From sequence record PV245934.1: a stretch of DNA of 64,000 bases. One strand, written 5' to 3'. Position numbers and translations under genes: made by a program. Numbering within the stretch: position 1 is the first letter of the stretch; each line of letters opens with the position of its first letter. The DNA is from Escherichia phage sutha. Positions 6,711-42,007 of the stretch are shown here, in pieces. Below the pieces are notes generated by a model. That model searched no databases. It saw only the letters and a program-made list of their open reading frames with translations, and was not told the DNA's origin.

Positions 6711-7913
6711 TTATTTTGTAATAATGTCAAACTGTTCTTTAAAGCAGAAGCTTGAATCTTGGTGCTGATACAAAAATTCATAAGCTTTTTCGCGTTCACG
6801 GTCATAAAGAGCTCGGTCAGATGACAGTTCTTTAATACGCTCAAATGTTGATTCCATGCCATTTTCATCAAACCAAACGATACCGCTATCATGTGAAATT
6901 AACGGAGTATTATCAACACGGAATTTTAAATTTTCACCAGTAGATTTCCAAAATACTGGAATTGTTCCGCATGCACCAAGCTCGAGATGAGTATATTCTA
7001 AAGAACGTTGTAGATATTTTTTGTCCAACTTACTCAGCTGATAACCAAATCCGGATTTACGCATACGTTCAAGCATTTCGCTATTTACATAACGGTCAAG
7101 AATTTGCGTTGGCAAATTAGGAGCAATTTTAATTTGGTCTACTTGATGAAGACGATAATACTCGTATGGAATTCCTTTTTCTTTAATAGGAATGAACGCT
7201 GGAGAACGTTCCAGACCTTCCATAATAGTACTTAGTCCTGCAGGTTTAAGATGTTTTTCATGAAAATCAAACATCTGATAAAAGCCTTTCCATGTAGTAG
7301 TACGACCAATCCAACGGTTGATATTCATGTTAATTTCAGAAACATCTTTCCAGTAGGTTGATCGAACTTTCGCAATATCCATAGGAGGCTGAAAGTTATA
7401 TACGGTCGGTGCTTCTTCAATATCATCAAACAGAGAAACAGTTTCCGGATACCATTCTTTCATCAAAACTTTATTAAAGTCACCATTATCAGAATGACTA
7501 AAAATAACATCAGCTCGACGAACAGTTTCTTCTAATCCCAAATTTCGGCGCAAAGAAAGAGAAGAATGGTCATGTTGATAAACTACAACACGAACCGAAG
7601 GTTTAATGTTATCAATAATTTTTTTATAGTTATTAATTGTGTCTTCTTCAACTGAAGTAGCAGGAACTGAATTGATAATTAGAATATCACAATCATTTAC
7701 CAGCTTAAGGGTTTTATCGTATTCTTTTGCCAATAAAACCGGAATTGAAAATGATTTATAATCATGTGCGCAATTACGAGTAAATGATTTATCTTTAGCA
7801 TAAACCAAAGTTACTTCATGACCATTTTTAATAAACCAATCACGCTGCTCAAGAGAAAATTTAGTTACACCGCAACCTTCAAGACCTCGAGCCATAAAAA
7901 TACATACTTTCAT
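6711..7913 (-). CDS. a-gt: DNA alpha-glucosyltransferase
   Basis: 400 aa, M(K/R)VCIFMARGLEGCGVTKFSLEQRDWFIKNGHEVTLVYAKDKSF... near-identical to recalled T4 alpha-gt. Confidence 0.95.
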   Translation of the reverse strand: MKVCIFMARGLEGCGVTKFSLEQRDWFIKNGHEVTLVYAKDKSFTRNCAHDYKSFSIPVLLAKEYDKTLKLVNDCDILIINSVPATSVEEDTINNYKKIIDNIKPSVRVVVYQHDHSSLSLRRNLGLEETVRRADVIFSHSDNGDFNKVLMKEWYPETVSLFDDIEEAPTVYNFQPPMDIAKVRSTYWKDVSEINMNINRWIGRTTTWKGFYQMFDFHEKHLKPAGLSTIMEGLERSPAFIPIKEKGIPYEYYRLHQVDQIKIAPNLPTQILDRYVNSEMLERMRKSGFGYQLSKLDKKYLQRSLEYTHLELGACGTIPVFWKSTGENLKFRVDNTPLISHDSGIVWFDENGMESTFERIKELSSDRALYDREREKAYEFLYQHQDSSFCFKEQFDIITK

Positions 7914-13464: not shown

Positions 13465-13557
13465 TCATTTATTTATGTTATCGGTGCTATGCGCACCGAT
13501 ATATTCCTTTGAATTAATTATATTTGTTATTTTATAAATTATATAATACCTATGCAT
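13465..13557 (-). pseudogene. N-terminal GIY-YIG motif fragment in a different frame from the downstream ORF (frameshifted or split homing endonuclease gene)
   Basis: Short ORF MHRYYIIYKITNIINSKEYIGAHSTDNINK ending in TGA; ATG overlaps nrdD stop (CATGCATAG); main ORF starts 8 nt later in +1 frame. Confidence 0.5.
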
Positions 13558-15367
13558 GTTTTACTCGTTTTACCATTTCTTTCATTTTACCTAAATTCCA
13601 TGGAACAACGCTAGGAGTTCCAAGATATCCGCATGTTCTTCTTATTGTATTCATCTTTTTAGGATCAGTTTCTCCACAAATAGAACAAACAAATCCGTTT
13701 TCAGTAGGAGTCATTTCATGGGTACTTCCACACGTAAAACATTTATCTACTGGCATATTAACACCAAAATAATCTAAATGTTGTGCAGCATAATCCCATA
13801 CAGCCTCAAGACCTTTTAGGTTATTTTTCATATCAGGAAGTTCAACATAAGAAATGTGACCACCTGTCGCAATGAAATGATACGGTGCTTCGCGAGAAAT
13901 CTTTTCAAACGGAGTAATATTTTCTTCTACTGAAACGTGGAAACTATTAGTGTACCAGCCTTTATCGGTAACATCTTTTACACTTCCATATTTTTCGGTA
14001 TCAAGTTTACAGAAGCGATAACACAGGTTTTCAGCAGGAGTAGAATACAAGCTAAAAGCAAATCCGGTTCTTTCAGTCCACTGTTTAAGACGAGCATTCA
14101 TTTTAGTCAAAATTTCTTGCCCAATATCACGACCGACAAGAATATTCAATTCGTGAATACCGATGTATCCCAGGGATACTGAACTTCTACCGTTTTTAAA
14201 TAACTCAATTATATCATCATCGGGTTTAAGACGAACCCCGAATGCACCTTCTTGGTAAAGAATAGGAGCAACAGTAGCTTTAACTCCTTTTAATGAACTA
14301 ATTCTACACATCAATGCTTCAAAACATAAATCCATTCGCTCATTGAACAATTCGGCAAATTTCTGTTCATTGAATTGTGTTCCAATATAAGAATCTAACG
14401 CAATGCGAGGAAGATTCAGTGTTACAACGCCAAGATTATTACGTCCATCAAGAATTTCATTACCAGTCGAATCTTTCCATACGCTCAAGAAACTACGGCA
14501 ACCCATTGGAGAAACAGGAATAGATGAACCTGTGATAGCTTTATTGTTCTTAGCCGAAATGATGTCAGGATACATTCTTTTGCTTGCGCATTCTAAAGCA
14601 AGCTGCTTAATATCATAGTTCGGATCGTCTTTATAAAGATTAACACCTTCTTCAACAAACATAACAAGTTTAGGGAAAATAGGAGTTATCCCATCACGAC
14701 CAAGGCCTTTAATACGATTTTTCAGAATTGCTTTCTGAATCATTCGTTCAGTCCAGTCAGTTCCCGTACCAAATGTAATTGTTACAAAAGGCGTTTGTCC
14801 GTTTGAACTAAAGAGAGTATTTACTTCATATTCATAAGCTTGGAATGCATCGTATACATCTTTTTCTGTTTTAGATTGGGCATAATTCAACGCATCAGCG
14901 ATTTGCCATTTTTCTGCGTCCTCAATATGTTTTGCATAGGTGCGTTTAACATAAGGAGAAAGGACTTTATCTACATTCGCAAAAGTCGTTCCACCGTATT
15001 GATGGGAAGCAACCTGTGCAGTAATTTGTGCCATAATTGCAGTAGCAACACCGATTGATTTAGGAGTTTCAATCTGTGCATTACCGAGCTTAAATCCGTT
15101 CTCAAGCATTCCTTTTAAATCTACTAAACAGCAATTAGTAAATGGAAGAGCAGGGGAATAATCAATATCATGGAAATGAATAATTCCGCTTTCATGCGCT
15201 TTCATAATAAAAGACGGGACCATATTTTTGGCAATGTGTTTAGACACAATACCAGCCATAAGGTCCCGTTGAGTTGGAAAAACACGAGAATCTTTATTAG
15301 CATTCTCGTTTAAAAGGTCTTTATTAGTTTTATGAATCAATCCTTCAATTTCTTTTTCAATTGTCAT
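13550..15367 (-). CDS. nrdD: anaerobic ribonucleoside-triphosphate reductase NrdD (uninterrupted)
   Basis: 605 aa continuous ORF; C-terminal glycyl-radical motif RRTCGYLG and Zn-ribbon CxxC...CxxC; no intron. Confidence 0.95.
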   Translation of the reverse strand: MTIEKEIEGLIHKTNKDLLNENANKDSRVFPTQRDLMAGIVSKHIAKNMVPSFIMKAHESGIIHFHDIDYSPALPFTNCCLVDLKGMLENGFKLGNAQIETPKSIGVATAIMAQITAQVASHQYGGTTFANVDKVLSPYVKRTYAKHIEDAEKWQIADALNYAQSKTEKDVYDAFQAYEYEVNTLFSSNGQTPFVTITFGTGTDWTERMIQKAILKNRIKGLGRDGITPIFPKLVMFVEEGVNLYKDDPNYDIKQLALECASKRMYPDIISAKNNKAITGSSIPVSPMGCRSFLSVWKDSTGNEILDGRNNLGVVTLNLPRIALDSYIGTQFNEQKFAELFNERMDLCFEALMCRISSLKGVKATVAPILYQEGAFGVRLKPDDDIIELFKNGRSSVSLGYIGIHELNILVGRDIGQEILTKMNARLKQWTERTGFAFSLYSTPAENLCYRFCKLDTEKYGSVKDVTDKGWYTNSFHVSVEENITPFEKISREAPYHFIATGGHISYVELPDMKNNLKGLEAVWDYAAQHLDYFGVNMPVDKCFTCGSTHEMTPTENGFVCSICGETDPKKMNTIRRTCGYLGTPSVVPWNLGKMKEMVKRVKHA

Positions 15368-40839: not shown

Positions 40840-40868
40840 CCAAAAAGCCCCAACCTTTCGGTCGGGGC
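40840..40868 (-). repeat. copy 2 of 29-bp hairpin direct repeat (terminator-like)
   Basis: Identical to 40289-40317. Confidence 0.6.
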
Positions 40869-40869
40869 T

Positions 40870-41150
40870 AAGCCTTGCGGCAACCTTGTCGGGGTTCCAC
40901 CTGCTAAGGCAAGTGTTTGTACGAAACGCCGGGATTCGAACCCGGTTATTAAGCAGTTGACGCTACTCAATATTTTTAAAAGGCCATATCTCGACCATAT
41001 CCGAACGTTCCGTCAAAAACGCTACTCGGCTTACGGCAAAGATATTTCCTCGAATCGATAATTCGGTGCGCCGTTTCAGCTGTGATAGTAAAGAACCAGA
41101 ACACAGTAAAACTGTGGGAGGAACTATACTCCAGGGAACATCAGTCCGAC
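40870..41150 (-). ncRNA. putative small stable RNA locus (T4 species 1/2-like), boundaries approximate
   Basis: Non-coding 280 bp downstream of tRNA cluster with tRNA-like T-arm (GGGTTCGAATCCCGG) and paired ends CGAAACG/CGTTTCG about 140 nt apart. Confidence 0.4.
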
Positions 41151-41153
41151 GAC

Positions 41154-41708
41154 TTACCGGTAGCGACCCGGTTTCTCATTTGGTATTTCAAATTGTGTAG
41201 ATTTAGTATCTAATTTTTTAACTATGGAACTTATGTCATGAAAGAAAAACCATTCACTATTTATATGGTCCTGATTATAAATGCTGTGCATATATTTTTC
41301 AAGTTCTACTGCATCCTGGGAATATCTAAATGATACTATTTTAAAACTTTTAAACGGTGAAAATGTATTTGCTGTTATAACTCTAACATCAGGTTCTATA
41401 CTTCTTCCTATTTTATAATAATTAGGATTTGTAGTATCTACCATTATGTATACGAAAGCCTGTCGATAGCTTTTTTCTATATCAAATTCATCTTTAAATT
41501 TCAAAAGATTTAGGGCGGCAGTCCTACAAAATACTTTCCATTTTGACAAGCGTTTGGCTTTAGTCATAGAAAAGAATTTTTTCTTATCTGTTATTTTAAG
41601 AAAAGCAACATTTTCAATTAGTTCTTGTGTTATTTCAAAATTACCATGGTATATTAATCCAGCTTTTATAGCCAAATTAATTTGGTCCCAGTCTACATCA
41701 CTTCTCAT
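41154..41708 (-). CDS. T5orf172/GIY-YIG-like domain protein
   Basis: 184 aa; C-terminal half has AFVYIMVDTTNPNYYKIGRSIEPDVRV... resembling T5orf172 (KIG-x-S/T) motif; sits between tRNA-Arg and stable RNA locus. Confidence 0.5.
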   Translation of the reverse strand: MRSDVDWDQINLAIKAGLIYHGNFEITQELIENVAFLKITDKKKFFSMTKAKRLSKWKVFCRTAALNLLKFKDEFDIEKSYRQAFVYIMVDTTNPNYYKIGRSIEPDVRVITANTFSPFKSFKIVSFRYSQDAVELEKYMHSIYNQDHINSEWFFFHDISSIVKKLDTKSTQFEIPNEKPGRYR

Positions 41709-41729: not shown

Positions 41730-41806
41730 TGGCCAGGGTGAAAGGATTCTAACCTTTAACCTGCGGTTTAGAGGACCGCTACTCTATACAATTGAGTTAC
41801 ACCCCG
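41730..41806 (-). tRNA. tRNA-Arg (anticodon UCU)
   Basis: Cloverleaf folded by hand: acceptor CGGGGTG/CACCCTG, anticodon loop CCTCTAA, T-arm AAAGG-TTAGAAT-CCTTT, CCA encoded. Confidence 0.8.
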
Positions 41807-41912
41807 TAATTAGTTCACAGCAATACCTACTCCAACAATCAAGATGTCTTCACACGAAATTAAGAGAAGAGTGATCAGTTCAACCCCTATAACCGCGTCA
41901 AGTAGATATTAA

Positions 41913-41928
41913 TGTGACAATTGTCACA
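41913..41928. promoter_or_regulatory. perfect 16-bp palindrome TGTGACAATTGTCACA (CRP-consensus-like TGTGA-N6-TCACA)
   Basis: Read directly between tRNA-Asn and tRNA-Arg; flanks AA...AA extend consensus. Confidence 0.35.
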
Positions 41929-41932
41929 AATT

Positions 41933-42007
41933 TGGCGGACGTGATAGGATTCGAACCTATAACCAATCGCTTAACAGGCGATCGCTCTGCCATTGAGCTA
42001 CACATCC
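41933..42007 (-). tRNA. tRNA-Asn (anticodon GUU)
   Basis: Acceptor GGATGTG/CACGTCC, D-arm GCTC-AATGGCA-GAGC, anticodon loop CTGTTAA, T-loop TTCGAAT, CCA encoded. Confidence 0.8.

Follow-up and report, generated by a model that had tools for sequence, protein, structure and literature searches.

The 16-bp palindrome TGTGACAATTGTCACA of Escherichia phage sutha is probably one end of a conserved, folded spacer RNA in which it takes part in two alternative pairings, and the long helix at the base of this RNA probably serves as a processing and folding signal within the tRNA precursor. The palindrome lies at positions 41913-41928 of the 64,000-nucleotide stretch of DNA that was analysed (hereafter the window), which belongs to a Tequatrovirus, i.e. 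a T4-like phage. The spacer is apparently an undescribed structured RNA, common to several genera of T4-like phages and to a few Vequintavirinae; nothing relevant to an RNA between tRNA-Asn and tRNA-His was found in the literature searched.

The palindrome in its tRNA operon

ARAGORN detected ten tRNA genes in the window, all on the minus strand and transcribed in the order Gln, Leu, Gly, Pro, Ser, Thr, Met, Tyr, Asn, Arg. The preliminary description had placed the palindrome in a 126-bp gap between tRNA-Asn and tRNA-Arg, and such a gap is indeed delimited by ARAGORN, at 41807-41932. At the RNA level, the palindrome starts 4 nt past the encoded CCA of tRNA-Asn. Compared to T4, the window has additional tRNAs (Met, Tyr and Asn) and is devoid of segB and tRNA-Ile. 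In most Tequatroviruses endowed with tRNA-Asn, the usual order is Asn, a 114-nt spacer, tRNA-His and tRNA-Arg. The 76-nt tRNA-His is missing from the window and from about ten relatives, 236Ecol005PP, REP2 and teqskov among them. An alignment with phage wV7 revealed that tRNA-His was deleted in the window, with its first four bases, GTGA, kept. Table 1 lists the features of the region.

Table 1. Position in the window of the genes and RNA elements discussed in the text
Feature	Position	Strand	Basis or remark
DNA alpha-glucosyltransferase gene	6711-7913		Pfam AGT, 778 bits
Operon terminator	40846-40869		Terminator scan
rnaC homologue	40920-41058		Same operon as spacer
rnaD-like region	41065-41179		Same operon as spacer
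Gene with T5orf172/MUG113 domain	41154-41708
tRNA-Arg(UCU)	41730-41806	-	ARAGORN; Rfam tRNA; next tRNA after the spacer here
Conserved spacer RNA, predicted structure; normally tRNA-His leader	41810-41930	-	Covariance model R1, 127.4 bits, E 8.5e-24
Basal helix, 3' strand GAGUAGGUAUUGCUGUGAA	41814-41832	-	Carries the tRNA-His relic
UGUGA relic	41815-41819	-	U-1 G1 U2 G3 A4 of the deleted tRNA-His; wV7 alignment
P3, 4-bp hairpin with 7-nt loop UCUUGAU	41834-41848	-	2 of 4 pairs with compensatory changes
P2, long internal hairpin, apex variable	41852-41898	-	ACGCG/CGUGU and GGG/CUC pairs kept, some compensatory change
Basal helix, 5' strand GUCACAUUAAUAUCUACUU	41900-41918	-	17/19 paired in the window; compensatory changes at several pairs
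Arm B, palindrome 3' arm, RNA GUCACA	41913-41918	-	Outermost part of the basal helix 5' strand
Local-hairpin loop AAUU	41919-41922	-	Sole freely varying part of the palindrome in Tequatroviruses: AACU, AGUU, AAUU
Arm A, palindrome 5' arm, RNA UGUGAC	41923-41928	-	Second copy of tRNA-His U-1 to C5
tRNA-Asn(GUU), encoded CCA	41933-42007	-	ARAGORN; Rfam tRNA, 74.1 bits

The palindrome itself is present as first reported, and its claimed identity with the core TGTGA-N6-TCACA of E. coli CRP sites is exact. This pattern occurs once in the window, for 0.05 occurrences expected, and at least one match was obtained in 5 of 100 shuffled sequences. A search of the rest of the genome had been proposed as a check; run on the whole window, it returned TGTGACAATTGTCACA as the single match, with up to 3 mismatches allowed. 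The flanks, described as A-rich, proved to be AT-rich (ttaa / aatt) and not simply A-rich. A perfect 16-bp palindrome is not in itself unusual in this window of 35% G+C, which contains seven of them, compared to ∼2.1 expected under a first-order Markov model. Several of the others resemble terminator hairpins.

Alleles of the palindrome centre were counted in the 197 phage records matching a 52-nt stretch around it. The version with an imperfect centre, AACT, was the most common (TGTGACAACTGTCACA, exact in 174 records), AGTT was a minor allele in other Tequatrovirus records, and the perfect centre AATT was a minority allele, seen only in the window and in vB_VIPECOOM03. Since AACT is the majority form and both AGTT and AATT are minor, the perfect palindromy appears to be an accident of the sequence of a hairpin loop.

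A conserved structured RNA in the spacer

Used as a blastn query, the 126-nt spacer retrieved 355 phage records, with tRNA-His annotated at the 3′ edge in nearly all of them. Identity was 95-99% among Tequatroviruses, and 74-88% for Karamvirus, Klebsiella phages and Gelderlandvirus. A Melville-type query retrieved 387 phage records, and a covariance model recognised divergent copies in Serratia phage X20 (Winklervirus), Pectobacterium phage PM2 (Mosugukvirus) and Enterobacter phage myPSH1140. In most T4-like phages having the spacer RNA, tRNA-His follows it immediately on the 3′ side; Karamvirus, Klebsiella phages and Gelderlandvirus have tRNA-Gln, and not Asn, as its upstream neighbour. In Vequintavirinae, four records (W70, A7_1 and two others) have the spacer RNA between two other tRNAs. 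It is absent from T4 itself. Five true copies were found in IMG/VR, a scan of metagenomes gave phage-like copies plus chance matches and nothing else, and within the window the covariance model R1 finds only the copy reported in Table 1.

Several identities were tried for this spacer and rejected. Neither ARAGORN nor the Rfam tRNA model detected a tRNA or pseudo-tRNA inside it. A scan with Rfam 15, up to an E value of 1, gave no family match inside 41807-41932. Homology to the non-tRNA RNAs of T4 was also discarded, as a blastn-short comparison with T4 rnaC and rnaD produced chance words only, and so was a bacterial origin, the exact-pattern scan of 185,579 genomes having yielded a single chance match.

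The consensus predicted by RNAalifold from 16 distinct sequences consists of a long basal helix, an internal arm, P2, and the 4-bp hairpin P3. The whole window spacer folds at -30.7 kcal/mol (z = -2.25), and its core, 41814-41918, at -30.5 kcal/mol (z = -2.94). In the MAFFT alignment of the 16 sequences, 96.7% of the cells were paired and 9 of the 30 pairs had changed on both sides; none of 500 shuffles reached the covariation score, and controls in which the alignment was slid were 41-50% paired. Comparable values were obtained with 23 distinct sequences aligned to R1 (96.2% of cells paired, 12 of 30 pairs changed on both sides, 0/500 shuffles reaching the score, 40-53% paired in slid controls), in an alignment that leans toward R1, having been fitted to it. 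The compensatory changes of P3 are AU/GC/UA at one pair and AU/CG at another, and its loop reads UCAUGAU in other genera, so that the consensus UCWUGAU is conserved. G.U pairs were found in 123 cells, at 14 pairs, versus 4 cells with A.C, at 2 pairs. This asymmetry argues for an RNA read in the direction of the tRNAs, and not for a DNA inverted repeat. We conclude from the covariation that the spacer encodes a conserved structured RNA of ∼105 nt on the tRNA strand.

The same asymmetry bears on the possibility of a function at the DNA level. It is hardly credible that the palindrome is the DNA target of a dimeric phage protein or of a homing endonuclease, or else an inverted repeat or cruciform belonging to a mobile element. 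Admittedly, homing endonucleases have a hotspot in the tRNA region, with SegB cutting inside tRNA-Asn, a gene with a T5orf172/MUG113 domain is present in the window, and the element is also found in Vequintavirinae. However, the excess of G.U over A.C denotes selection on one RNA strand rather than duplex symmetry, the centre of the palindrome varies, and one of its arms is absent outside Tequatrovirus. We found no evidence in favour of the site for a dimeric phage protein that the preliminary description had suggested. A DNA inverted repeat, or mobile-element terminal repeats with a variable interior, is ruled out by the G.U versus A.C asymmetry. A SegB homing site at the palindrome is ruled out as well, the published 27-bp site being located wholly within the tRNA-Asn gene, in the T-arm (PMC2330249).

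Not all parts of the RNA are equally maintained. The apex of P2 has been swapped for unrelated hairpins in several lineages, and in Morganella phage MP1 little is left beyond the basal helix. Given this replacement of P2 and the reduction seen in MP1, the basal helix stands out among the sequences compared as the most conserved unit of the spacer RNA. An extra insert of ∼105 nt in VPA32 and Melville folds no better than shuffled sequences (z = -0.15).

These observations also weigh on the possibility that the spacer is excised as a stable small RNA acting in trans, like rnaC and rnaD, with the palindrome hairpin as its 5′ protective stem-loop, a possibility that we regard as unlikely. The homologues of these two RNAs (40920-41179) are in the same operon, the paired ends and the compact fold of the spacer core would resist exonucleases, the P3 loop is conserved, and the element has outlasted tRNA-His in the window lineage and in Salmonella phage SEA1. 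Yet P2 swapping and the MP1 reduction point to the helix, and not to a trans-acting surface, as the part that matters; the sequence is unlike rnaC and rnaD, and we know of no target.

Two alternative partners for the palindrome 3′ arm

In the RNAalifold consensus, arm B of the palindrome is paired with tRNA-His, at the 5′ end of the tRNA. The sequence that it faces there, UGUGAC or UGUGGC, is made of U-1 plus nucleotides 1-5 of the tRNA. The basal helix is fully paired (19/19) in every genome having both the GUCACA strand and tRNA-His, and it has 18 of 19 pairs in genomes where GUCACA is replaced by the CCA end of the tRNA-Gln lying upstream. In the window, which is without tRNA-His, 17 of the 19 pairs are formed, leaving two mismatches.

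The pair at position 4 exists in three states. In wV7, the leader GUCAC faces GUGAC of tRNA-His and the pair is U-A. In most Tequatroviruses, the same leader faces GUGGC, giving U.G, and in KarlGJung and L14 a GCCAC leader facing GUGGC gives C-G. A neighbouring pair is U-A in Tequatrovirus and C-G in Karamvirus. The change to GCCACA in KarlGJung and L14 has opposite effects on the two pairings: it improves the long-range one, U.G with G4 of tRNA-His becoming C-G, whereas it introduces an A x C mismatch in the local hairpin; in the DNA, it converts the TCACA half-site into CCACA. All phage tRNA-His genes inspected have a U, and not a G, at position -1, with C73 kept.

The other partner of GUCACA is arm A, a second copy of UGUGAC sitting 4 nt upstream. 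Every Tequatrovirus sequence examined had it, and none of the sampled members of Karamvirus, Gelderlandvirus (Melville), Klebsiella phages, Winklervirus, Mosugukvirus and Vequintavirinae did. Conservation in related phages, which the preliminary description had taken as a test of the palindrome, was found for the 3′ arm, kept across five genera, but not for the 5′ arm outside Tequatrovirus. The CRP-like palindrome results from GUCACA having two alternative partners. As far as sequence comparison goes, it is the acceptor stem of tRNA-His (G1 U2 G3 A4 C5), and not a DNA-binding protein, that sets the letters TGTGA/TCACA.

The local hairpin formed by the two arms displays no covariation, its arms being invariant in Tequatrovirus except in KarlGJung and L14; apart from these two genomes, variation is restricted to the loop. 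The conservation of arm A probably says little about selection, because the 52-nt stretch is identical in 174 of the 197 records. The local hairpin is, in this sample, an alternative pairing limited to Tequatrovirus. SEA1, which is also without tRNA-His, has its own version on the same strand, GUGACG-GAUUAU-CGUCAC, with another loop length and another spacing, and this one is not CRP-like. The guess of an RNA processing hairpin made in the preliminary description was therefore correct in pointing to a feature of the RNA, but the conserved unit is the 19-bp long-range helix, to which the palindrome contributes its 3′ arm only.

Predicted folding energies

The two pairings were compared with nearest-neighbour energies. 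For the window spacer, folding with the local hairpin or with the long-range helix is predicted to give the same energy (-30.7 versus -30.6 kcal/mol), and the respective pairing probabilities are 0.28 and about 0.7 (0.54-0.72 for the long-range pairs involving arm B). The local hairpin is thereby predicted to be a minority state at equilibrium. For the wV7 precursor, the leader is predicted to pair with nucleotides -1 to 5 of tRNA-His with a probability of about 0.95, in competition with the acceptor stem. The conformation combining the tRNA-His cloverleaf and the hairpin would be 2.6 kcal/mol above the minimum when arm A is present, and the enforced cloverleaf 4.7 kcal/mol above it when A residues stand in for arm A. 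The modelled gain brought by arm A would then be small, about 2 kcal/mol, in a model whose energies fit tRNAs poorly.

An alternative is that the hairpin is a neutral relic. The 3′ arm would then owe its function to the basal helix, the 5′ arm would be a fortuitous short duplication or inversion, or what remains of a tRNA-His acceptor minihelix, and the local hairpin and the palindrome would have no function of their own. Several facts are consistent with this: the non-Tequatrovirus genera sampled retain the element without arm A, the hairpin is a predicted minority conformer, KarlGJung and L14 tolerate a mismatch in it, and the uniformity of the region makes conservation uninformative. Two others argue against it, namely the restriction of Tequatrovirus variation to the loop, two genomes excepted, and the differently built hairpin of SEA1, on the same strand, which hints that sequestering or capping of this strand recurs. 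We hold the relic to be rather unlikely.

Improbable CRP binding and termination at the palindrome

The preliminary description had considered a host CRP site. Binding of CRP-cAMP to the palindrome as DNA, with regulation of transcription in or near the tRNA cluster, is very unlikely. What speaks for it is the perfect core, with its low expectation by chance, the retention of both half-sites in about 195 of the 197 Tequatrovirus records, and a weak -10-like hexamer, TATAGG (41891-41886, minus strand), located at class II distance. However, this hexamer scores 4/6, is without the -7 T, falls inside P2 and is not conserved. The promoter scan gave no sigma-70-like site on the tRNA strand near the palindrome, the one match there (9/12) being antisense and overlapping it, and no promoter is found with the spacing of CRP sites (near -41.5 or -61.5, or overlapping). 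The palindrome is embedded in a tRNA operon that is transcribed without interruption, and a tRNA ends 4 nt away from it. Moreover, the two half-sites are not maintained together in related genomes: the 5′ one is missing from all non-Tequatrovirus genera sampled, and the 3′ one is kept for RNA pairing, its change to CCACA in KarlGJung and L14 improving the RNA helix.

The chemistry of the DNA is a further argument. In T-even DNA, cytosines are glucosyl-hydroxymethylated, and the added group lies in the major groove, through which CRP recognises the TCACA half-site. The window encodes an alpha-glucosyltransferase, so that glucosyl-hydroxymethylation is expected at the six cytosines of the palindrome duplex. 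The literature searched revealed no role of CRP at this locus. We consider this false lead worth recording, as a perfect TGTGA-N6-TCACA in a phage genome invites over-interpretation.

An intrinsic terminator or attenuator acting after tRNA-Asn has a next to negligible probability. The hairpin does stand directly 3′ of a tRNA gene, and other 16-bp palindromes of the window are terminator-like, but it has 6 bp only, 3 of them G-C, its tail UUAAUAU is not a U-tract, and it is not listed by the terminator scan. In addition, tRNA-His, tRNA-Arg, rnaD and rnaC are all downstream, and the real terminator of the operon is found further on (Table 1). More generally, neither a promoter nor a terminator reading of the palindrome was retained, no supporting site being present in the scan.

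Discussion

From the comparison of sequences, we infer that the spacer has a role in processing and folding, possibly as an RNase III stem. The basal helix would be a signal acting in cis in the polycistronic tRNA precursor. It would connect the upstream tRNA, on its 3′ side, with tRNA-His, on its 5′ side. RNase P could act, and the acceptor stem of tRNA-His could form, only once this helix had been cut or melted. With about two turns of AU-rich, perfect dsRNA, it would make a plausible substrate for RNase III: the expected substrate is about two turns of uninterrupted dsRNA, a length reached by the 19-bp helix, albeit with 17 of 19 pairs in the window. RNase III has been reported to take part in the maturation of T4 tRNAs (review PMC4810235, citing McClain 1979, Gurevitz and Apirion 1983), which makes it the obvious candidate for cutting the basal helix.

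The local hairpin would be the first of the two pairings to form during transcription. It could later hold GUCACA while the 5′ end of tRNA-His is taken up by the tRNA fold, so that the folded tRNA-His would be favoured, and it could also cap the 5′ end of an excised spacer RNA. In the window, a role of the spacer related to tRNA-His cannot operate, because tRNA-His is missing and the basal helix is 17/19 paired. The switch is probably vestigial in this genome.

A more specialised version of this proposal, which we judge quite unlikely, is that the leader helix is a device dedicated to the maturation of tRNA-His, the palindrome hairpin of Tequatroviruses being an anti-sequestrator, i.e. a small RNA switch. 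The helix would sequester U-1 to C5 of tRNA-His, and a cut of the RNase III type, or an opening at the proper time, would set an unusual 5′ end for this tRNA, for example by keeping an extra 5′ nucleotide instead of G-1, or would gate the supply of tRNA-His. Nothing relevant to phage tRNA-His deprived of G-1 was found in the literature searched.

The processing and folding signal that we favour can be compared to several known systems. RNase III processing stems are found in the rRNA operons of E. coli. As in such stems of polycistronic stable-RNA precursors, a long perfect helix of ∼19-20 bp is built from flanking sequences, and it covaries across genera. Unlike in the rRNA operons, the helix described here encloses a spacer and not a mature RNA, and the downstream tRNA contributes its first five nucleotides to one strand. 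Like T4 rnaC (species 1) and rnaD (species 2), the spacer is a structured non-tRNA RNA, measures about 100-140 nt and belongs to the tRNA operon that encodes them, where it would be co-transcribed with tRNAs, but it has no sequence similarity to them, is positioned upstream, and not downstream, of tRNA-His or tRNA-Arg, and is absent from T4. To our knowledge, rnaC and rnaD are still without an assigned function. The competing helices of attenuators and riboswitches offer another parallel, as GUCACA has two mutually exclusive partners of nearly equal predicted energies; here, however, there is no known ligand or signal, and the upstream partner is Tequatrovirus-wide, with a separate version in SEA1. 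Finally, the likeness to E. coli CRP sites stops at the exact core: the palindrome has no partner promoter, its 5′ half-site is found in one genus only, and its letters follow the tRNA-His acceptor stem.

The spacer would thus add a third non-tRNA RNA to the tRNA operons of T-even phages, besides rnaC and rnaD, and one that is physically coupled to tRNA-His, as the 19-bp helix includes the tRNA's own 5′ end. It offers a testable handle on the cutting and folding of phage polycistronic tRNA precursors. Natural variants of the helix are available in two phages of the BASEL collection, KarlGJung (GCCACA) and Paracelsus (GUCACA).

Mosaicism and gene content of the tRNA locus

The lineage of the window has lost tRNA-His by a clean deletion, with the first four bases of the gene remaining (window 41814-41820, compared with 1429-1504 of phage sequence L001). 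The tRNA-Asn/spacer/tRNA-Arg locus is mosaic. Its tRNA-Asn allele is of the wV7 type, and the 3′ end of the spacer together with tRNA-Arg is of the 236Ecol005PP type. Across these three genomes (window, wV7 and 236Ecol005PP) the spacer is nearly invariant, and the tRNA-Asn of 236Ecol005PP has over twelve differing positions.

Between tRNA-Arg and rnaD lies an ORF with a T5orf172/MUG113 domain, which shares ∼25 nt with the start of the rnaD homologue (see table). It is restricted to ∼10 relatives, which also lack tRNA-His and carry the same tRNA-Arg allele. This ORF is possibly a mobile, nuclease-like gene that came in with the rearrangement. Compared to T4 rnaD, the matching ends of the neighbouring rnaD-like region are 41 nt and 22 nt long, and its centre is divergent.

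Coordinates of features in the window and in comparison phage sequences (L numbers)
Feature	Location	Strand	Remarks
DNA alpha-glucosyltransferase gene	window 6711-7913	minus	Pfam AGT, 778 bits
Anaerobic ribonucleotide reductase NrdD	window 13550-15367		
rnaC homologue	window 40920-41058	minus	98.6% identity to T4 rnaC
rnaD-like region	window 41065-41179	minus	T4 rnaD match at two ends only
184-aa ORF, T5orf172/MUG113 (GIY-YIG-like) domain	window 41154-41708	minus	domain match
P3 loop	window 41838-41844	minus	also L006, L008, L017
P2 apical loop	window 41871-41879	minus	also L006, L008, L017
∼105-nt insert	L005 288-392		also L006, L043
Phage tRNA-His with position −1	L001 1429-1505; L004 503-576; L044-L047 position 160/161		

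The element in other phages

Only four Vequintavirinae records have the element, Escherichia phage W70 (L009 580-701) among them. These copies, with 85-88% identity, are flanked by two other tRNAs, the downstream one being tRNA-Gln. As elsewhere, pairing is possible between the upstream tRNA, at its CCA end, and the first nucleotides of the downstream one (CUCCAAA/UUUGGGG). The presence of the element there suggests that it moved horizontally from one phage family to another. Salmonella phage SEA1, which has no tRNA-His, carries a shortened P3 loop and a local hairpin that is built differently, on the same leader strand (GUGACG-GAUUAU-CGUCAC, L041 289-310). Some Karamvirus and Gelderlandvirus genomes have an extra insert between tRNA-Gln and the element, which folds no better than shuffled sequence (z = −0.15).

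Read by eye, the P2 apical loop is complementary to the P3 loop in both versions of P2: the window type has AUCA and UGAU, the Melville type UCAUGA in both loops. P2 and P3 might make a kissing (loop-loop) contact.

Position −1 of phage tRNA-His

G−1 is the main identity element for E. coli HisRS. All phage tRNA-His genes examined (from Tequatrovirus, Karamvirus, Gelderlandvirus, Klebsiella phages, Mydovirus KB57, Morganella MP1, a mycobacteriophage and Aeromonas LAh_6) have T, not G, at this position and keep C73; none of them, therefore, encodes G−1. A literature search on phage tRNA-His without G−1 found no paper. Since U−1 is the leader base preferred by RNase P, normal 5′ cleavage at +1 is expected for the phage tRNA-His.

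Other features of the window

Perfect 16-bp palindromes number 7 in the window, with about 2 expected. Besides the CRP-like one, they lie at 314, 30211, 38132, 48398, 57926 and 61411. Those at 314, 57926 and 61411 are likely terminators, because they are G+C-rich and followed by T-runs. The positions of the alpha-glucosyltransferase and NrdD genes agree with the standard T-even gene order.
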